From a virus (lineage: Duplodnaviria; Heunggongvirae; Uroviricota; Caudoviricetes): a stretch of DNA of 7,515 bases. Shown here one piece after another: positions 1 to 7,515 of the stretch. The notes under the pieces were generated by a model. That model saw nothing but the letters and a program-made list of their open reading frames with translations. It was not told where the DNA came from and ran no database searches. A program made the position numbers and the translations under genes. The stretch lies in the IMG/VR virus record IMGVR_UViG_2526164690_000027, positions 1-7,515 of that record, one strand, 5' to 3'. Within the stretch, counting starts at the first letter, position 1, and each line of letters begins with the position of its first letter.

Positions 1-1
1 A

Positions 2-1591
2 TACGATGCTCCGGATCCGCGCATTAAACAGCTGGCGCGCCGCAGTACAGTGACGCCGGGCGGGGCTGCCTGCAGATATAACGATATTATTCCGGCTGAC
101 CACTGTCTGCATGATGTGCAGGATATGAGTACGCTGAATCATCCGAAGGCAGACCTGAGCAAAGGGCAGTACGGCTGTGTCGGCCAGGGCTTACATATTG
201 CCAAAAAACTGCTTCCGTATATCCCGAATAACGCGGGGATCCTGCTGGTACCATGCTGTCGTGGTGGTTCTGCATTCACCCAGGGCGCTGAGGGGACATT
301 CAGTGCGGACACGGGGGCTAGCCATGATTCGGCACGCTGGGGTGTGGGTAAACCGTTATATCAGGACCTGATTGCGCGCACCAAAGCTGCATTACAGAAG
401 AACCCGAAAAATGTGTTGCTGGCGGTGTGCTGGATGCAGGGAGAGTTTGACATGAGCGCCGCCACCCACGCACAGCAACCTGCGCTGTTTACAGCCATGC
501 TGACACAGTTTCGTGCTGACCTCTCCGTGTTTAACGCGCAGTGCCATGGTGGCAGTGCTGCAGATGTGCCGTGGATTTGTGGTGACACGACGTATTACTG
601 GAAAAATACATACGCTACCCAGTACGACACCGTGTACGGCGGGTATAAAAACAGGGAGAGTGAGGGCGTTTATTTTGTGCCCTTCATGACAGACGGTAAC
701 GGTGTCAATACCGCCACTAACGCGCCGGCAGAAGATCCGGATATTCCGGCATCAGGATATTACGGTGCGGCATCGAGAACGAATGGAAACCAGGTATCAT
801 CAAACCGCCCGACACATTTCAGTTCATGGGCGCGCAGGAGCATTATTCCGGATCGTCTGGCAACCGCTATTCTGAACGCAGCCGGGCGCACCTCAGCCTT
901 CATCAGTGGTAAGGCACCGGAAATCAAACCCTCGCCCGGCGGCAACACGCCATCGGGTCCGTCTGCAGATACGTCCGTTCGCACAATCTCCCTGCTGCCG
1001 GCAGCCGGAGAGGCTGCTGCGCAGGGCTGGAGCATTAAGGATGGCGGAATTCAGTTGTCGGGTGGTGTATTTAAGATCGCCAAGCAGAGCAATAAAACCT
1101 GGTCCCTGACGCATCCGGTGGATGACGCAATTACCCTGCTGACACAGGGCGGCAGACTGACCTGTAAGTTCCGCCTGTCAGGCGCACTGACCAACAATCA
1201 GTTCGGGCTGGGGATTTATCTGTATACGGATGCTCCCGTTCCTGATGGTGTGGCGATGACGGGTACCGGTAATCCGTTCCTGATGTCGTACTTCACTCAG
1301 ACCACTGACGGCAGAGTGAATCTGATGCATCACAGGAAAGCCGGAAACACGAAGCTGGGGGAGTTCGGCGATTACGGTAACGACTGGCAGACGCTGGAGC
1401 TGGTGTTCACCGCCGGCAGTGCCACGGTTACTCCGAAACTGAATGGAGTGGCTGGCCCGGCATTCCAGGTTATAAAAGACAGTCTGACACTGGGACTGAA
1501 TGCGCTGACGCTGACGGATGTTACAAAAAATGCAGCGTATGGCGTTGAGATAGAAAGTCTGGTGCTGGAGATAAATGCACCGGCAGCATAA
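2..1591 (+). CDS. 5'-truncated phage moron esterase, SASA/SGNH-like (NanS-p-like putative sialate O-acetylesterase) with a C-terminal beta-rich domain
   Basis: Frame is open from position 2 to TAA at 1589-1591 with no in-window upstream stop; the GTG at 50 is only the first in-window start, so the gene continues upstream. Translation contains ...VPCCRGGSAF... and ...CWMQGEFD..., resembling the GG and W-x-QGE-x-D blocks of sialate O-acetylesterase (SASA) domains. A Gly/Thr/Asn-rich C-terminal domain follows. Position directly upstream of the holin matches where NanS-p-type esterases sit in EHEC prophages. Functional call is inference from memory. Confidence 0.55.
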   Translation, partial: YDAPDPRIKQLARRSTVTPGGAACRYNDIIPADHCLHDVQDMSTLNHPKADLSKGQYGCVGQGLHIAKKLLPYIPNNAGILLVPCCRGGSAFTQGAEGTFSADTGASHDSARWGVGKPLYQDLIARTKAALQKNPKNVLLAVCWMQGEFDMSAATHAQQPALFTAMLTQFRADLSVFNAQCHGGSAADVPWICGDTTYYWKNTYATQYDTVYGGYKNRESEGVYFVPFMTDGNGVNTATNAPAEDPDIPASGYYGAASRTNGNQVSSNRPTHFSSWARRSIIPDRLATAILNAAGRTSAFISGKAPEIKPSPGGNTPSGPSADTSVRTISLLPAAGEAAAQGWSIKDGGIQLSGGVFKIAKQSNKTWSLTHPVDDAITLLTQGGRLTCKFRLSGALTNNQFGLGIYLYTDAPVPDGVAMTGTGNPFLMSYFTQTTDGRVNLMHHRKAGNTKLGEFGDYGNDWQTLELVFTAGSATVTPKLNGVAGPAFQVIKDSLTLGLNALTLTDVTKNAAYGVEIESLVLEINAPAA

Positions 1592-1599
1592 TAAAAAAA

Positions 1600-1633
1600 G
1601 AGCCAGCGACTGACCTGAAAGAAGACGCTGGCT
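1600..1633. repeat. Stem-loop element copy 1 (8-bp stem AGCCAGCG / CGCTGGCT, 17-nt loop), A-tract on 5' side
   Basis: AGCCAGCG at 1601-1608 is the exact reverse complement of CGCTGGCT at 1626-1633. Preceded by AAAAAAAG, so on the minus strand the hairpin is followed by a T-run. Lies 9 bp after the esterase stop. Confidence 0.3.
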
Positions 1634-1747
1634 AAAAGGCCTTATATGTTTGTAGAGACTTATTTTTCACAGACAGCAATGATGCCTGTCAATATATTAT
1701 CAATATGCGGATTGTTTCAGTTACAGATGCTTTATTAAGGAAAAAAC

Positions 1748-1782
1748 AGCCAGCACTGACTTTCGGTGGAGAGGTGCTGGCT
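1748..1782. repeat. Stem-loop element copy 2 (9-bp stem AGCCAGCAC / GTGCTGGCT, 17-nt loop), paralogous to copy 1
   Basis: AGCCAGCAC at 1748-1756 pairs with GTGCTGGCT at 1774-1782. Same arm core (AGCCAGC...GCTGGCT) and ACTGAC at the start of the loop as copy 1. Preceded by GGAAAAAAC. Confidence 0.3.
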
Positions 1783-1956
1783 CAGAAGGATAGTTGGATT
1801 TCACATGATACTTATGCCTGGCGGTATATTTTCTGACAGACAGTGACGGGTGTTGTCAAGATATTGTGTCATTTATAACCTGAATCAGGGGAGGCCGGAA
1901 TGTTATCTGGCATTTTTAGCAGAGCCTGAATGCCATAATCACGGCTCCCGGCGTTG

Positions 1957-1995
1957 GCCGTCAGTGGGTGACACTGGCGGCTTTTTTGTTTTTCT
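1957..1995 (+). terminator. Rho-independent terminator immediately upstream of the holin (tR'-like position)
   Basis: GC-rich 10-bp stem: GCCGTCAGTG at 1957-1966 pairs with CACTGGCGGC at 1972-1981 (one G.U pair), 5-nt loop GGTGA, followed by TTTTTTGTTTTTCTTT at 1982-1997. Holin start codon is ~40 bp downstream. Confidence 0.6.
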
Positions 1996-2037
1996 TTACT
2001 TTCATTTTCTGTCGGCGGTGACGGAGACATACATCAG

Positions 2038-2244
2038 ATGGAAAAAATCACAACAGGTGTGTCATACACCACGTCAGCGGTGGGGACGGGATACTGGTTA
2101 CTGCAGCTGCTGGACAAAGTCTCTCCGTCCCAGTGGGTGGCAATAGGTGTGCTGGGAAGTCTGCTGTTTGGCCTGCTGACGTATCTGACTAACCTGTATT
2201 TCAAAATCAGAGAGGACCGTCGTAAGGTGGCGCGGGGAGAGTAG
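2038..2244 (+). CDS. S: Class II holin / pinholin (phage 21 S21-like)
   Basis: 68-aa ORF with two predicted TM segments: weakly hydrophobic TMD1 [15 protein letters not shown] and TMD2 [18 protein letters not shown]. Charged C-terminus [13 protein letters not shown]. Strong resemblance to the S21 pinholin from memory. Located after a terminator and paired with a SAR endolysin. Confidence 0.85.
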
Positions 2245-2499
2245 TCGATGAATAAACAATACGAACTGGTTGTAAAATGAATATTTCTAACTGAAAAAAC
2301 GTTCCATGAGGTAAGAAAAGGTCACAGGCAATCAATAACAGGACGTGATGAAAGACCCTTGCATTTGTGCGCTTTCTCTTTAGATAGCAGCAGATACTGA
2401 AAATCTGAGTTGTCGGGGAGTCAGGGATACAGCTGTGCAAGAGTTGGTCATTGTGATTCCATTGAAATCCTGTATGCCATGAAGGGCAGGATTTTATGG

Positions 2500-2814
2500 C
2501 TACCTGAGCTTTGGTGATAGTAAGTTGAAAATTCGCATTTTTTGCTGACATGCGTAACGAGAATCCCATAAACAGGGAGGACTTAATTCTTCATTAACCC
2601 ATGCGTTGATATTATGTTTCAGCCGTTGAAGCATCAGCGGTGTTAATGTTGTGGTAATAATATCCAGCGTTTTATGTGAGATCTTACCGTAAGGGTCTGC
2701 AAGAATGCTGCTTGTTGCTTCGTTATTATCTGCCATCAGAAGAAGTAACTCTGATTTAACGTTTTCTGTCATTAGTTGTAAAAATCTTCTGCGCAAACTT
2801 TCTTTACTGTTCAT
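2500..2814 (-). CDS. Hypothetical 104-aa protein encoded antisense to the lysis genes within an AT-rich insert (possibly YdfR/DUF1327-like by position; unverified)
   Basis: A 104-codon open frame on the minus strand inside a visibly AT-rich segment, where stop codons should be frequent, so chance ORFs of this length are unlikely. Hydrophilic, helix-like composition. Start ATG (plus 2812-2814) has only a weak SD-like GAAG upstream and an in-frame TAA immediately 5', so the start cannot extend further. In E. coli K-12 Qin, ydfR occupies the equivalent holin-endolysin slot (recalled, not checked). Confidence 0.4.
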   Translation of the reverse strand: MNSKESLRRRFLQLMTENVKSELLLLMADNNEATSSILADPYGKISHKTLDIITTTLTPLMLQRLKHNINAWVNEELSPPCLWDSRYACQQKMRIFNLLSPKLR

Positions 2815-2931
2815 TTATATGGCTTCATTTGTTGTAATCTGCTGCGTCTCAAGGGATATGTTTATGAGAGCGACCATGAGTGTTTGATTATATACCTAAC
2901 ATATCAAGGGATTAGAAATCGATAAATCCCC

Positions 2932-3465
2932 ATGAACGAAAAAATAAAATACGGCCTGTCGGCTGCCGTTCTGGCGCTGATTGGTGCAGGTGCTTCTGCG
3001 CCTGAAATCCTCGACCAGTTTCTGGATGAAAAGGAAGGTAACCACACCACGGCATACCGTGATGGTGCGGGGATCTGGACCATCTGCCGTGGTGCCATTC
3101 TGGTGGATGGTAAGCCTGTTATTCCTGGCATGAAGCTGTCAAAGGAAAAATGCGACCGGGTTAATGCCATCGAACGTGACAAGGCGCTGGCATGGGTGGA
3201 GAAAAACATCCGGGTGCCGCTGACCGAACCCCAGAAAGCGGGGATCGCGTCATTCTGTCCGTACAACATTGGCCCCGGTAAGTGCTTCCCGTCGACGTTT
3301 TATAAACGAATTAATGCAGGCGATCGAAAAGGTGCCTGTGAGGCGATTCGCTGGTGGATTAAGGACGGTGGCAGAGACTGCCGTATTCGTTCAAACAACT
3401 GCTACGGTCAGGTATCCCGTCGTGACCAGGAGAGCGCGCTGGCGTGCTGGGGTATCGACAGATAA
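2932..3465 (+). CDS. R: SAR endolysin, T4-lysozyme-like muramidase (GH24), phage 21 R21 / P1 Lyz type
   Basis: 177-aa ORF. N-terminal Gly/Ala-rich signal-anchor-release segment YGLSAAVLALIGAGASAP. Catalytic E-x8-D-x5-T triad in EGNHTTAYRDGAGIWT. Downstream blocks (...INAGDRKGACEAIRWW..., ...ESALACWG) match the R21 family from memory. No convincing SD upstream of the ATG. Confidence 0.9.
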   Translation: MNEKIKYGLSAAVLALIGAGASAPEILDQFLDEKEGNHTTAYRDGAGIWTICRGAILVDGKPVIPGMKLSKEKCDRVNAIERDKALAWVEKNIRVPLTEPQKAGIASFCPYNIGPGKCFPSTFYKRINAGDRKGACEAIRWWIKDGGRDCRIRSNNCYGQVSRRDQESALACWGIDR

Positions 3466-3559
3466 GCAGAATATTTTGCTGAAAAATAAGGCATGGCCAC
3501 GCGGGCGGATAACATGAAATCCTGCGAACTGGCAAAATGTAAGTGAATAAAAGTAAAAA

Positions 3560-3594
3560 CCCCGTTTGTTGGCAGCAAGCGGGGTTTTGTTTTT
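3560..3594 (+). terminator. Rho-independent terminator downstream of the endolysin
   Basis: CCCCGTTTG at 3560-3568 pairs with CAAGCGGGG at 3576-3584 (9 bp, one G.U pair), 7-nt loop, followed by TTTTGTTTTT at 3585-3594. An A-tract (3555-3559) on the 5' side makes it potentially bidirectional. Confidence 0.55.
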
Positions 3595-3659
3595 ATGGCA
3601 GTAAGCTATGGGAGGCTGCCTTGATTGATTTTAGCAAACTGATTAGGGAGTTGCGACTC

Positions 3660-3755
3660 ATGATTAGTCAATTACCAAACTGGAAATTTTTGCTGGTCTG
3701 GAGCATCCCTTTTTTATGGGTAGTATCCCAGTTAATTGTGGCAATTAAGGGGTAG
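3660..3755 (+). CDS. Small hydrophobic protein, 31 aa (MISQLPNWKFLLVWSIPFLWVVSQLIVAIKG), single predicted TM helix
   Basis: ATG at 3660 is preceded by SD AGGGAG (3645-3650) with a 9-nt spacer. Stop TAG at 3753-3755 lies 2 nt before the next ORF start. This is the 3' part of track ORF 3543..3755, whose 5' part overlaps the terminator hairpin. Confidence 0.35.
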   Translation: MISQLPNWKFLLVWSIPFLWVVSQLIVAIKG

Positions 3756-3757
3756 CT

Positions 3758-3889
3758 ATGTCAGACAAACTCATAACGCCGGCAAAGGTCCTGTGTGTGA
3801 TTGTCGGTATTTCATTTTCACTAATGCTGGTTGCTCTTTTTCTGTCCCTCGCCTGGGTGATGTTGTCTTCGTCGGGGCTGCTGGGGTGA
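3758..3889 (+). CDS. Small membrane protein, 43 aa (MSDKLITPAKVLCVIVGISFSLMLVALFLSLAWVMLSSSGLLG)
   Basis: ATG at 3758 is preceded by SD AAGGGG (3747-3752) with a 5-nt spacer. Below the ORF-track length cut-off. One long hydrophobic segment. The N-terminal TM segment resembles the Rz TM segment at both protein (KVLCVIV vs RVLCVVIIV) and nucleotide level. Confidence 0.4.
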   Translation: MSDKLITPAKVLCVIVGISFSLMLVALFLSLAWVMLSSSGLLG

Positions 3890-3891
3890 CA

Positions 3892-4008
3892 GTGACTGAT
3901 GACATCAGCAGAGCGCTGGCTTTTGCTATTAAGTGGGTGGCTGTTGGTATTGCTGTGTCTCCGATGCTGTATGGGCTGGCAAAACTGGTCATTGCGCTGA
4001 AATCGTGA
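3892..4008 (+). CDS. Small hydrophobic protein, ~38-40 aa (..TDDISRALAFAIKWVAVGIAVSPMLYGLAKLVIALKS); start ambiguous (GTG 3886 overlapping the upstream stop as GTGA, or GTG 3892)
   Basis: Frame matches the 3' part of track ORF 3736..4008. GGGG at 3882-3885 can serve as SD for GTG 3892. Paralogous to the next small ORF (shared motif RA[LM]AFAI[KR]xVA). Confidence 0.3.
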   Translation: MTDDISRALAFAIKWVAVGIAVSPMLYGLAKLVIALKS

Positions 4009-4019
4009 ACTTTAAAAAG

Positions 4020-4106
4020 ATGAGTGCTGAACTTATTCGGGCAATGGCATTTGCCATTCGTATTGTGGCCATTGCTGTTCTGGTCTGGGCAATCCGTTGG
4101 TGGTGA
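4020..4106 (+). CDS. Small hydrophobic protein, 28 aa ([28 protein letters not shown]), paralog of the preceding small ORF
   Basis: ATG at 4020; stop TGA at 4104-4106 lies 1 nt before the Rz ATG at 4108. No clear SD. About 9/20 identical plus conservative residues against ORF 3892-4008 over the core. Confidence 0.3.
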
Positions 4107-4107
4107 T

Positions 4108-4602
4108 ATGAACCGTGTTCTGTGTGTGGTGATTATTGTCCTGCTGGTAGCCTGTGGTGTGCTTAGTCTGGGGCTGAATCATTACCGCGATAACGCCATC
4201 ACCTACAAAGCGCAGCGCGATAAAAAAGCCAGAGAGCTGGAGCTGGCAAACGCAACTATTACTGATATGCAGGTGCGCCAGCGCGATGTTGCTGCGCTCG
4301 ATGCAAAATACTCGAGGGAATTAGCCGATGCGAGAGCTGAAAATGAAACTCTGCGCGCTGATGTTGCCGCTGGTCGTAAGCGCCTGCGGATCAACGCCAC
4401 CTGCCCCGGTACCGTGCGTGAAGCCACCGGCACCTCCGGCGTGGATAATGCAACCGGCCCCCGACTGGCAGACACCGCTGAACGGGATTATTTCATCCTC
4501 AGAGAACGGTTGATGACAATGCAGAAGCAGGTGGAAGGGGCACAGGACTATATCCGCACTCAGTGTACTAAGCAGGCTTTTTATTATCCGGAGGATGTAT
4601 GA
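4108..4602 (+). CDS. Rz: Rz i-spanin (inner-membrane spanin subunit)
   Basis: Translation from ATG 4108 ([39 protein letters not shown]...[23 protein letters not shown]...) aligns closely with lambda Rz from memory: N-terminal TMD, coiled-coil periplasmic domain. The in-frame upstream ATG at 4024 would add a non-homologous 28-aa extension that overlaps the small ORF, so it is rejected. Confidence 0.9.
4328..4513 (+). CDS. Rz1: Rz1 o-spanin (outer-membrane lipoprotein spanin subunit), embedded in +1 frame within Rz
   Basis: 61-aa [64 protein letters not shown]. Lipobox VSAC, proline-rich mature part. Close match to lambda Rz1 from memory. SD GAGGGA at 4314-4319. Confidence 0.85.
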
Positions 4603-4823
4603 AGAAATTACAGGTAACGGTAAAACCTTTTCAGGGAACAATTCCGTTCCGTGTTTTGCAACATGGCCGTGTTCTGCTTGAAGAGGTGTTCAGAGGTAAA
4701 TGCACTGAATGTTATTCACGAACATATGAAGTGAATGCCACGCATGAAGAATTCACCGTTGAGTGTGTGATGAATACTGATAAATGCCGAATGGTATCCG
4801 CTGAATTACAGCCAGTGTGTTGA
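4599..4823 (+). CDS. Hypothetical 74-aa Cys-rich protein (CxxC plus three further Cys), translationally coupled to Rz
   Basis: ATG at 4599 overlaps the Rz stop (ATGA). GGAGGA at 4590-4595 is directly upstream (short spacer). Five Cys including C-T-E-C. No recognisable homology from memory. Confidence 0.5.
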
Positions 4824-5191
4824 GCGACCTTATTATCCATGCGCGGTATTGTCGCCGTATTCCTGCATTAACAGAGACCGCAGCCCGACAGGGAGACTCC
4901 TCTGCGAGAGTGTGCGGGGATAATCAAAAACGATACACACCGGGGTTTACCGCGTAAACGGAGCGCGGCGTTCTCCCCTCATGGTCGCCCGTCCGGTGCG
5001 ATGGTGGAAGAAACTGGAATCTGTTCAATAAAAAAACTGCCGTGTTGGAGTCACAGCAGTAATGTACTGATTGGGTAGAAGATTATTATTGTTATGCTTT
5101 ATTTTTATTCTATATGGCTGATTATTTCAATTCGGAATTAATACAGCTAATGTCTGTGAGTTTTTATAAATTCAGCAATATAAAGAAATAG

Positions 5192-5419
5192 TTATATGAA
5201 CAGCCATCGCAGAGCATACTGTGTATCATTCTTTTTTATAGTCAACTGACGGGCATATTTTATGTCTGCTGCCAGCTCCCGGCGGCAAGATTCAATGACC
5301 CACGCAGAAAAATTTTCTGAACCTTTCTGGTCAAGAGCGATGTTAATTTGTTCAATCATCTGGTTTGGAAATCGGATGTTGCGGGTTGTTGTTCTGCGGG
5401 GCCGGTTTTTCGATGACAT
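5192..5419 (-). CDS. Small DNA-binding-like protein, YlcI-like (DUF3950 / ribbon-helix-helix-like), 75 aa, divergent from the HNH gene
   Basis: Minus-strand ORF with SD-like AGAGGA ~7 nt upstream of the ATG (plus 5417-5419). N-terminal basic stretch then RNIRFPNQMIEQINIALDQKG...FSAWVIESCRREL, recalled as the YlcI-type small protein found next to terminase genes in E. coli cryptic prophages. Family assignment is from memory. Confidence 0.55.
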   Translation of the reverse strand: MSSKNRPRRTTTRNIRFPNQMIEQINIALDQKGSENFSAWVIESCRRELAADIKYARQLTIKKNDTQYALRWLFI

Positions 5420-5460
5420 TTTCTTTCCTCTGGTGACAAGCTATATGGCGAGGATTTTAC

Positions 5461-5826
5461 ATGGCTGTGCTTCGTACGTTACCGGGCAGAATCAAAACTC
5501 TGAATACCCGGCGGGTGAATGTCCTGAAGGGTGAACAGCGTCGGGTCAGTGGCAGTGCACGTGTTTCCCTCAAGCGTCGTATCTGGCTGAGGGATGCCGG
5601 GCAGTGCTGTCTCTGTGGTCGTGTGGTTGACCTCTGTGACAGTGAACTCGATCACCGAATTGCACTTCAGTTCGGTGGTGGTAATGAGGAGACGAATCTC
5701 TGGACGCTCTGTACCGAATGCCATCGACAAAAGTCTGCTCGTGAAGTGGCGGGTGGTATGCCGGACCCGACGCTGCCGGAGGTGTCCGGAGGTCATGGCA
5801 GGGCAGACGATATCATCGGACTGTGA
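5461..5826 (+). CDS. HNH endonuclease, terminase-associated (HK97 gp74-like)
   Basis: 121-aa ORF with SD AGGA 6 nt upstream. Classic HNH architecture: C-C-L-C ... D-H ... N-L-W ... C-T-E-C-H. Located immediately upstream of the cos-like region and terS, as in HK97-like phages. Confidence 0.85.
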   Translation: MAVLRTLPGRIKTLNTRRVNVLKGEQRRVSGSARVSLKRRIWLRDAGQCCLCGRVVDLCDSELDHRIALQFGGGNEETNLWTLCTECHRQKSAREVAGGMPDPTLPEVSGGHGRADDIIGL

Positions 5827-5900
5827 CCCGCCCCGGGGGGGGGATCATCCGGCGAAAAAAACGATCCGCCCCGGACACCGCCCCCCGTCTCATGCAGAAG
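5827..5900. other. GC-rich segment with a G9 homopolymer; candidate cos cleavage (cosN-like) region
   Basis: CCCGCCCCGGGGGGGGG at 5828-5843, then GATCATCCGGCG, an A7 run, and CGATCCGCCCCGGACACCGCCCCCCG. Lies between the HNH and terS genes, where cos sits in HK97-like phages. The exact nick sites cannot be determined from sequence alone. Confidence 0.25.
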
Positions 5901-5917
5901 AAAAAATTCCTGTTCAG

Positions 5918-5939
5918 GCCAGTTAACATGTTAACTGGC
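5918..5939. repeat. 22-bp perfect palindrome GCCAGTTAACATGTTAACTGGC (followed by 8-bp palindrome GCCCGGGC at 5941-5948)
   Basis: Sequence 5918-5939 equals its own reverse complement (verified base by base). The flanking pair 5917/5940 breaks the symmetry. Confidence 0.9.
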
Positions 5940-6044
5940 TGCCCGGGCATTTTTCGGTTTTTATCTTTATTATTCAGTTTGTTGTGCGAAAAAAATGTTA
6001 ACTGGCTTTTTCAGCAAATGTTAACCAGGCAGCAGTTAACATTT
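5918..6044. promoter_or_regulatory. Array of GTTAAC-centred half-sites (consensus CAGTTAACAT); putative terminase small-subunit binding region (cosB-like) or other dimeric-protein operator
   Basis: Five GTTAAC cores at 5922, 5930, 5997, 6020 and 6035. ATGTTAACTGGC at 5995-6006 is identical to the right half of the palindrome. ATGTTAACCAGGC at 6018-6030 and GCAGTTAACAT at 6032-6042 form an inverted pair with a 9-bp spacer. An AT-rich spacer (5950-5994) separates the palindrome from the other sites. Confidence 0.4.
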
Positions 6045-6116
6045 GCGGCATGAGACGCCGGGAAAAATGGGCTGAACCATACCCGGCTGAGTGCGTTATG
6101 GACCCGGGAGGAGGCT

Positions 6117-6680
6117 GTGCTGACAACGCAAAAACGAAAATTTGCGCTGGCGCTCATGTCCGGGAAAAACAAAACAGCGTCAGCCATTGCCGCTGGTTAT
6201 TCGGCGAAGACCGCCAGGGTTAAAGGCTCGCAGCTGGCAAAAGATCCGGAGGTGCTTGCGTTTATAGCCCGTAAACAATGCGAGACGGTGGAGGTGGATG
6301 AGGTTCCTGTTTACCGGCAGAAAAAATCAGAGCAGGAGGATAAACCCCGTCGCCGTGAGGCGGCTGCAATACCACAGCCGGACGAAAACAATCCGGAGAT
6401 GCCACCGTCCGCGGTGATGTCTCCTGGTATTGAATATATGGAGGATGGTCTTCCCGATCCGGTGAAAGCGATGGGGCGTCTTCTGGTGGAGAACATTAAT
6501 ACCGACCCCAGGCTGGCGCTGGATGCGGCTTATAAGCTGGCGCAGTTCACGCACCATAAAAAAGGGGATGCCGGTAAAAAATCGGCAAAAGGTGACGCGG
6601 CGAAAAAAGCGGCTAACCGTTTTGCGGTGCCACCACCACCCCGCCTGGTGGTGAATAATGATAATGAGGGCAACGAATGA
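6117..6680 (+). CDS. terS: Terminase small subunit (Terminase_2-like, N-terminal HTH DNA-binding domain)
   Basis: GTG start at 6117 with SD GGAGG at 6107-6111. N-terminus ...KRKFALALMSGKNKTASAIAAGYSAKTARVKGSQLAKDPEV... matches the conserved small-terminase DNA-binding motif (AGYS..TA...GS.L) from memory. Stop overlaps the terL start (ATGA at 6677-6680). Confidence 0.85.
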   Translation: MLTTQKRKFALALMSGKNKTASAIAAGYSAKTARVKGSQLAKDPEVLAFIARKQCETVEVDEVPVYRQKKSEQEDKPRRREAAAIPQPDENNPEMPPSAVMSPGIEYMEDGLPDPVKAMGRLLVENINTDPRLALDAAYKLAQFTHHKKGDAGKKSAKGDAAKKAANRFAVPPPPRLVVNNDNEGNE

Positions 6681-7515
6681 TACCTGTGTGGAGCACGGCC
6701 TGCCCGGACTGGGCAGAGCGCCTGAAAAAGGGGCTGTCGATTATTCCGGCTCCGATTTATCCGGAGCAGGCTGCACATGCACTGGCGATTTTTAAACAAC
6801 TGCGGATTGTGGATGCACCGGGTAGCCCGACATTCGGGGAGTCCTGTGCACCGTGGGTGTTTGACCTGGTGGCGGCCCTGTTTGGCTCCTACGATGCGCA
6901 GACCGGTGTTCGCCATATCAAGGAAGTGTTTATCCTTATCCCCAAGAAAAACAGTAAGTCCACGCTGGCCGCGGGGATCATGATGACGGCGCTGTTACTG
7001 AACTGGCGGCAGGCGGCGGGCTACACCATTCTGGCCCCGACCGTGGAGGTGGCGGCTAACGCCTTCAACCCTGCCAGGGATATGGTACGACGGGACGATG
7101 ATCTGGATGACCTCTGTCAGGTGCAGACACATATCCGGACCATCACCCATCGGGTGACGGACACCACCCTGAAGGTGGTGGCAGCCGATCCGAATACGGT
7201 GTCCGGTATCAAGTCCGTGGGGACACTGATTGATGAACTGTGGCTGTTTGGCAAGCAGTACAAGGCGGAAGACATGCTACGTGAAGCCATCGGCGGGCTT
7301 GCCTCCCGTCCGGAAGGGTTTGTGGTGTATACGACCACCCAGTCGAATGAAACCGCCCGCCGGGGTGTTCAGACAGAAACTGCAGTATGCCCGGGATGTC
7401 CGTGACGGCAAAATTCATGATCCGCACTTTCTGCCGGTGATTTTTGAGCATCCTCCTGAAATGGTGGAAAGCGGGGCTCATCTGCTGATGGAAACCTCGC
7501 CATGGTTAACCCGAA
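6677..7515 (+). pseudogene. terL: Terminase large subunit, N-terminal ATPase domain; reading frame broken by an apparent +1 frameshift near 7349-7353; continues in the 0-frame to the window end (3'-partial)
   Basis: Frame-2 ORF 6677-7405 (242 aa) contains a deviant Walker A ...ILIPKKNSKST... but is far too short for a TerL. Its last 17 codons (TARRGVQTETAVCPGCP) look non-protein-like. The 0-frame is open from 7230 to the window end and reads protein-like from 7353 (PPAGVFRQKLQYARDVRDGKIHDPHFLPVIFEHPPEMVESGAHLLMETSPWLT). Junction is at the GAAA tract 7349-7352. Could be a real mutation or a sequencing error. Confidence 0.55.

Follow-up and report, generated by a model that had tools for sequence, protein, structure and literature searches.

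A conserved small gene of lambdoid prophages next to the Rz spanin gene and its possible accessory role

Is the short open reading frame (ORF) that begins on the stop codon of the Rz spanin gene a gene in its own right, and does its product take part in lysis? We addressed this question for a 74-codon ORF (4599-4823, plus strand) within a window of 7,515 nucleotides, the whole stretch of DNA that was analysed (positions 1 to 7,515 of the IMG/VR virus record IMGVR_UViG_2526164690_000027). The ATG of the ORF (4599-4601) shares its TG with the TGA stop codon of Rz (4600-4602), which results in an ATGA overlap (4599-4602, plus strand), and a Shine-Dalgarno sequence, GGAGG (4590-4594, plus strand), is embedded in the end of Rz, 4 nt 5' of the ATG. 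The 74-aa product contains five cysteines (6.8%; C35, C38, C56, C63 and C74), the first two of which form a CxxC motif (C35-T-E-C38). A preliminary description of the locus had pointed out the overlap, the embedded Shine-Dalgarno sequence and the cysteines, and all are present in the window as described. It had read them as signs of a metal-binding or disulfide-containing small protein that is translationally coupled to Rz and co-expressed with the spanins.

Results

The window corresponds to the late region of an E. coli prophage that is lambdoid and of the Shiga-toxin type. Its positions 4400-5100 match the Stx2a phage Stx2_EH1846 at 100% identity, and over its full length it shares 99.6% identity with a prophage in E. 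coli O103 RM8385. On the plus strand we located genes for a SASA/NanS-like esterase (50-1591), a class II (S21-type) holin (2038-2244), the lysozyme R (2932-3465), the i-spanin Rz (4108-4602; Pfam Phage_lysis, 8e-50) as the upstream neighbour of the ORF, the o-spanin Rz1 embedded within Rz (4328-4513), an HNH endonuclease (5461-5826), the small terminase (6117-6680) and the large terminase (6677 to the window end). A DUF3950/YnfO gene (DUF3950/YlcI-YnfO; 5192-5419) is encoded on the minus strand. Between Rz (54% GC) and the HNH gene (57% GC) lies a low-GC island (4599-5419; 42-44% GC) that comprises the 74-aa ORF and the minus-strand DUF3950/YnfO gene as well as 368 nt of non-coding sequence. 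An Rfam scan of the window returned zero RNA families. The slot behind Rz has no lambda counterpart on the plus strand, as had been noted before.

Several other small genes accompany the late genes of the window. On the minus strand, a 90-aa ORF (2500-2772; PHROG 1853, function unknown, annotated as "hypothetical" by PGAP) separates the holin gene from the endolysin gene and breaks up the late operon; other relatives carry a plus-strand YdfR gene at this site or nothing at all. In the spacer between R and Rz (3466-4107; 640 bp, 46% GC), we noted a strong hairpin with a T-run behind it (3556-3588). The same spacer harbours three tiny ORFs, each for a small single-pass membrane peptide (3758-3889, 3853-4008 and 4020-4106), within the lysis cassette. 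They match PHROGs 4906 and 3246/1115/4493, all of unknown function. In phage BP-4795, an ant gene occupies the place of this spacer. The DUF3950/YlcI-YnfO gene runs counter to the late operon in which it is embedded and is equipped with an intrinsic-terminator-like hairpin of its own (5060-5036), an arrangement that resembles the non-contiguous operon layout described for taiEcA/atiEcA of phi80. Since BP-4795 has this gene but lacks the 74-aa ORF, and phage ASU11 has the ORF but lacks the DUF3950 gene, the two are not linked.

Given that the window contains 85 ORFs of at least 30 aa, the length of a 74-codon ORF means little by itself. Residues 1-73 of its product, however, match the PHROG 2571 hidden Markov model (E=1.2e-28, 101 bits), and homologues of 60-100% identity, which form 22 clusters, occur in E. 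coli, Shigella and Salmonella. The ORF is present in 1244 of 5426 complete E. coli genomes, as a "hypothetical protein" in every sampled entry, the identical protein is found on at least 998 contigs, and NCBI's PGAP annotates it as WP_000736096.1. Among diverged copies (dS 0.4-0.9), dN/dS was 0.25-0.54 in the frame of the ORF versus about 1.2 in the other two frames, and the length differences among relatives are in-frame indels of 9 and 15 nt. A check of frame conservation in homologues thus came out in favour of the ORF (dN/dS of about 0.3 against about 1.2). The profile match, the homologues, the in-frame dN/dS, the in-frame indels and the AlphaFold2 fold described below together show that the ORF is coding. 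That is, it is a real, conserved gene under purifying selection, and the earlier view of a genuine, co-oriented small gene behind Rz with its own Shine-Dalgarno sequence was right.

We then analysed the predicted product. It has a mass of 8.6 kDa, a pI of 7.6 and no hydrophobic segment (maximum 15-residue Kyte-Doolittle average 0.64). Inspection of the N-terminus by eye did not reveal a hydrophobic signal-like stretch, and neither a signal peptide nor a lipobox, a Pfam lysis domain or a muralytic domain was found in the protein. AlphaFold2, run with a 13-sequence alignment, gave a model with a mean pLDDT of 87 and seven strands plus one short helix, so an all-beta sandwich is predicted. Pfam, NCBIfam and PADLOC scans returned zero matches for the 74-aa ORF, and the statement that its sequence was not recognised therefore agrees with the Pfam and NCBIfam results. 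A sequence profile search of the PDB yielded nothing below E=0.05, and Foldseek searches of the model against the PDB and the BFVD viral-structure library nothing at E<1e-3. The fold matches obtained were generic; hemocyanin, carbohydrate-binding modules (CBMs) and PNGase F reached scores that were equal or higher. We found no paper that names the gene under its PHROG id, its protein accessions or its context. Neither experiment nor annotation gives the ORF a function, and it is a conserved hypothetical phage gene.

A consensus scan revealed no plus-strand sigma-70-like promoter in 3400-5500, and such scanning also gave no convincing plus-strand terminator after the ORF. The sole plus-strand terminator match after it (5208-5223) is weak, has a 5-bp stem and lies inside the DUF3950 gene; the hairpin at 5036-5060 belongs to the minus strand. 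Since no promoter-like site precedes the ORF on its strand and since it lies inside the late operon, we infer that it is expressed from the Q-dependent late transcript. Its product would then appear only in the late phase of lytic growth, at the same time as those of the lysis and packaging genes; to this extent the earlier proposal is supported that the gene, as the last of the lysis cassette, is co-transcribed with the spanins.

The ATGA overlap could be traced by comparison with relatives. In ASU11, PPyecE_EH1910, KH16-043 (Stx2_KH16-043), HCM-28C-2 and 20AR1039, Rz ends with TAG or TAA 23 nt before the ATG of the ORF. In the window, Stx2_95, vB_EcoS-569R3 and MNCRE44, the former stop codon reads CAG or CTG. 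In the window it is CAG (4573-4575), and Rz there runs on through a C-terminal extension of nine codons, QAFYYPEDV, plus stop (4573-4602, plus strand); this extension is the former spacer between Rz and the ORF, now translated, and the Pfam Rz match stops at residue 153 of 164. On this comparison, both the Rz extension and the ATGA overlap arose when the ancestral stop codon of Rz was lost (TAG to CAG). Of 40 E. coli copies that were sampled, about half have the overlap, as judged by matches that overlap the Rz annotation. The Shine-Dalgarno sequence is conserved as GGAG(G/A) at seven inspected E. coli-type homologue loci, and it is kept together with the ATG in both arrangements, with or without overlap, which argues that initiation is primarily Shine-Dalgarno-driven and coupling secondary. 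Translation of the ORF would begin at this conserved site, and in the lineage of the window, where Rz runs into the ATG, any termination-reinitiation coupling would be a by-product of the TAG to CAG change. Coupling through ATGA as a designed feature does not stand up to this comparison, in which relatives have a 23-nt spacer and the same Shine-Dalgarno sequence, and a check of related prophages found the ATGA limited to the lineage of the window. As far as these alignments tell, the overlap is a derived accident of one lineage and no pointer to mechanism. In the periplasm, it is the C-terminus of Rz that makes contact with Rz1, and the QAFYYPEDV extension could therefore affect spanin function.

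Presence and position of the ORF vary among phages. BP-4795 and YYZ-2008 are about 99% identical to the window at the end of Rz and in the downstream flank and lack the ORF. The cassette missing from both extends approximately from 4573 to 4838 (plus strand); in BP-4795, about 20 unrelated bases take its place, and homology picks up again at ATGCGCGG (position 4839). Homologues lie directly 3' of the spanins in E. coli, in mEp237 (gp60), in a Klebsiella prophage and on further prophage contigs; another is situated between the Q antiterminator and the holin, and in HK225 and SaltyDalty a homologue lies between the tail genes I and J (hhalign probability 96%). The homologue of mEp237, a sequenced lambdoid coliphage, comprises 81 aa (YP_007111433); its gene follows a Rz-like spanin gene at a distance of about 100 nt and shares strand and late operon with it. 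Its identity to the ORF product is only about 30-35%, and it differs from this product by the lack of cysteines and by nine additional residues inserted after strand 1. A locus search with the EHDR subgroup of the family returned one Klebsiella locus. In Klebsiella prophage L029 the family member is 122 aa long, with a C-terminal extension, and is followed after 2 nt by a gene for a 160-aa protein with a retropepsin-like DTGA motif (L029 3357-3839, minus strand) and then by an HNH endonuclease gene.

From this distribution, the ORF is a horizontally mobile accessory gene of lambdoid prophages that is either present or absent at a given site. It recalls the moron concept (Hendrix/Juhala; lambda bor and lom), in which an extra gene is patchy among close relatives and of odd GC content. 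Like morons, the ORF is discrete, present or absent among close phages (an indel relative to BP-4795) and, with a GC content of 41.8% versus 54% in Rz, atypical in composition. Classical morons come with a promoter and a terminator of their own, and the lysogen expresses them. The ORF, in contrast, shows neither a promoter-like site nor a convincing terminator of its own and appears to depend on the late operon.

These data bear directly on a role in lysis, which the earlier account had implied. A small cytoplasmic protein co-translated with the spanins might tune holin timing or spanin output, a logic analogous to that of the cytoplasmic antiholin cofactor RIII of T4. The family shows a strong preference for the slot right after the spanins, which is compatible with such a role: it is found there in many prophages with different spanin families, it would share their late transcript, and in the window it even overlaps Rz. 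However, the overlap is the derived accident described above, and the association with the lysis cassette is not obligate, since the ORF is missing from phages whose S/R/Rz genes are closely similar, for example BP-4795 with its near-identical Rz end, and from YYZ-2008, and homologues reside upstream of the holin or within the tail module. Moreover, spanins act in the envelope, whereas the ORF product bears no membrane, signal or lipobox targeting and no muralytic domain. The implied lysis role was thus not borne out, and we consider a lysis accessory or regulator unlikely.

The copies between the tail genes also suggest a small beta-sandwich associated with the tail or virion, for example a tail-tip accessory or an assembly factor encoded outside the structural module. 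In SaltyDalty (L023 3119-3385) and HK225 (15221-15484), the family member is located between the tail assembly protein I and a J-like tip protein; the corresponding slot between I and J is empty in lambda. In addition, Pfam Phage_Tail_Tip matched the N-terminal part of P0043 (225 aa), in which the family domain is C-terminal, and a separate 204-aa gene upstream of the homologue in locus L018. Both of these matches are below threshold, though, the fold matches of the ORF are generic, most copies lie outside tail modules, and the gene is patchy among phages with closely related structural genes. We regard a tail function as quite unlikely.

The cysteines were the feature that had suggested a metal-binding or disulfide-containing protein, in which C35-x-x-C38 together with C56, C63 and C74 would form a zinc site or essential disulfides. 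In favour of this idea, the 74 aa include five cysteines, the CxxC falls on the hairpin turn predicted between beta3 and beta4, as is typical of zinc knuckles, and close family members have gained or lost C63 and C74 jointly. On the other hand, only C35 and C56 are invariant among close relatives. C38, the second cysteine of the CxxC, is replaced by L, S or G in several close E. coli relatives, and C63 and C74 occur in one subclade only and are absent from most. Across the 20-sequence family alignment (30-45% identity) there is no conserved cysteine column, let alone four ligands, and the 286-aa long form of the family reads RSFSPYS where the window has KCTECYS. Since the cysteines vary among close relatives and none is conserved family-wide, a conserved metal site or disulfide in the family is not supported by the alignments. 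Disulfides are further disfavoured by the cytoplasmic location, and the fold was predicted confidently with no ligand. We therefore consider a cysteine-based zinc site or disulfide protein very unlikely; the cysteines may have a subclade-specific role.

The ORF covers only positions 100-172 of the 291 in the PHROG 2571 profile and does not have the full-length architecture of about 286 aa. In the 286-aa protein of Escherichia phage PhiR46_1, the segment aligned with it is residues 101-153; this protein is likewise encoded in a lambdoid late region. This long form has N-terminal helical and C-terminal alpha/beta parts, whereas the ORF corresponds to the central beta domain only and has cysteines that the long form lacks; the structure predicted for the long form is poor (pLDDT 46). 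An exhaustive profile search returned 44 representative proteins, most of which stand alone at 72-81 aa with 30-45% identity, and remote stand-alone homologues match the same profile segment as the ORF. The family core in the 20-sequence alignment reads MKxLxVT...F.V.Q.G..L..D..SGK....Y.R.Y.VDA. Full-length forms of 280-286 aa are limited to a narrow set of E. coli prophages, and a tblastn search of the window with the long form found no N- or C-terminal remnants that flank the ORF. That is, the short form is the common and diverse state of PHROG 2571, and the ORF is not a decayed fragment. The idea of a non-functional remnant, a decaying piece of the 286-aa gene left by a deletion beside Rz, could appeal to the partial profile match but is largely refuted by the rarity of the long form, the missing flanks, the conserved start codon and Shine-Dalgarno sequence, and the purifying selection with in-frame indels, and we regard it as extremely improbable.

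A few observations concern the outer parts of the long form. By eye, its C-terminal part in PhiR46_1 (L004 3701-4561) shows a Walker-B-like hhhhDD motif, and the 151-aa neighbour in L018 (3386-3841) such a motif plus a P-loop-like GSSKTT. The C-terminus of the PhiR46_1 protein has no BLASTP similarity to this neighbour, and a comparison of the N- and C-terminal parts of the long form with the 204-aa and 151-aa proteins upstream of the L018 homologue likewise gave no similarity.

In several contexts, a gene of PHROG 4280 (about 70 aa, function unknown) lies 39-94 nt downstream of the family member, namely in L011-13, L014-16, L020, L021, L022 (mEp237, where gp61 follows gp60) and the E. coli locus L024. 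Its coordinates are 4341-4559 in L011, 449-670 in L015, 665-874 in L020, 477-746 in L021, 3806-4027 in L022 (gp61) and 2765-2980 in L024, and its motif reads MFVAxGLKxDPDN...WHLVGVYATK...GSDDF. At the same loci, PHROG 4280 proteins are 54-77% identical versus 29-51% for the ORF family, which thus diverges faster. The partner occurs in 139 E. coli genomes, compared with 1244 for the ORF. The short form of PHROG 2571 and PHROG 4280 may form a two-gene module.

A second neighbour is found in L017-L019, where a gene with an Acb2/Tad1 hairpin (Pfam E=2e-17; anti-CBASS sponge-like) directly follows the homologue, just before Nu1 (L017 863-1147, L018 5314-5598 and L019 3316-3600). The Acb2_Tad1_hairpin domain itself was not found in the 74-aa ORF by Pfam and sits in the neighbouring gene. 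A DUF4406 gene and a DNA methylase gene are also located near the Acb2-like gene in these loci, which look like an anti-defence cluster. Adjacency to Acb2 is limited to this one lambdoid lineage, and a search of the window for traces of either Acb2 or the PHROG 4280 partner found none.

Defence and counter-defence genes are documented to cluster in the interval that separates the lysis genes from the packaging genes. In phi80, this interval carries taiEcA on the minus strand and a 76-aa counter-defence gene of the late operon, atiEcA, the product of which (AtiEcA, orf64) counters the Tai tail-assembly-inhibition system (PMC11364771). AtiEcA resembles the ORF product in its small size and in its setting, as both are encoded on the plus strand, in the late operon, in the lysis-packaging interval and beside a minus-strand moron; atiEcA is expressed with the Q-dependent transcript, as the ORF probably is. 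The two proteins share no detectable homology, however, and a relationship by descent was rejected (hhalign probability 0.4%). A Tai homologue is absent from the window, where the minus-strand gene next to the ORF is DUF3950/YlcI-YnfO rather than one for a Tai-like 204-aa protein. A functional pairing of the ORF with a minus-strand gene in the manner of atiEcA and taiEcA was also rejected, since the gene on the minus strand is not the same from locus to locus and at some loci is missing.

Discussion

Taken as a whole, our analysis makes it on balance probable that the ORF encodes a late-transcribed, soluble, mobile accessory protein outside lysis, possibly one of counter-defence. The product, of 8.6 kDa, would be a cytoplasmic beta-sandwich of one domain in which neither a catalytic motif nor a conserved metal-binding motif is present, and most probably acts through binding to another protein. 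It would not belong to the holin-endolysin-spanin machinery. Compared with this accessory reading, lysis regulation and a tail-associated role are weaker, each with a small chance of being correct.

The most likely role is accessory, that is, counter-defence or a phage-phage or host-modulating function. We favour it on account of the position in the lysis-packaging hotspot, the fast evolution and the patchy distribution of the family. Counter-defence or competition in particular is plausible, and we put it forward tentatively. A more specific and rather doubtful version holds that the short PHROG 2571 proteins, with or without PHROG 4280, constitute a new late-expressed family in counter-defence or inter-phage competition that would bind and neutralise an immune protein of the host or of a prophage, with the hypervariable C-terminal third setting target specificity. 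Against counter-defence stand the Acb2 neighbour, which is confined to one lineage, and the window itself, which has neither Acb2 nor PHROG 4280.

The cysteines and the ATGA overlap, which had first drawn notice to the ORF, have no functional meaning at the level of the family. About one in four complete E. coli genomes has the gene, which also occurs in Shiga-toxin prophages, and its expression would coincide with toxin release and lysis. As a real, selected and mobile gene with a frequent conserved partner and occasional Acb2 neighbours, it is a reasonable candidate, of modest value, for screens of counter-defence and host-modulating functions.
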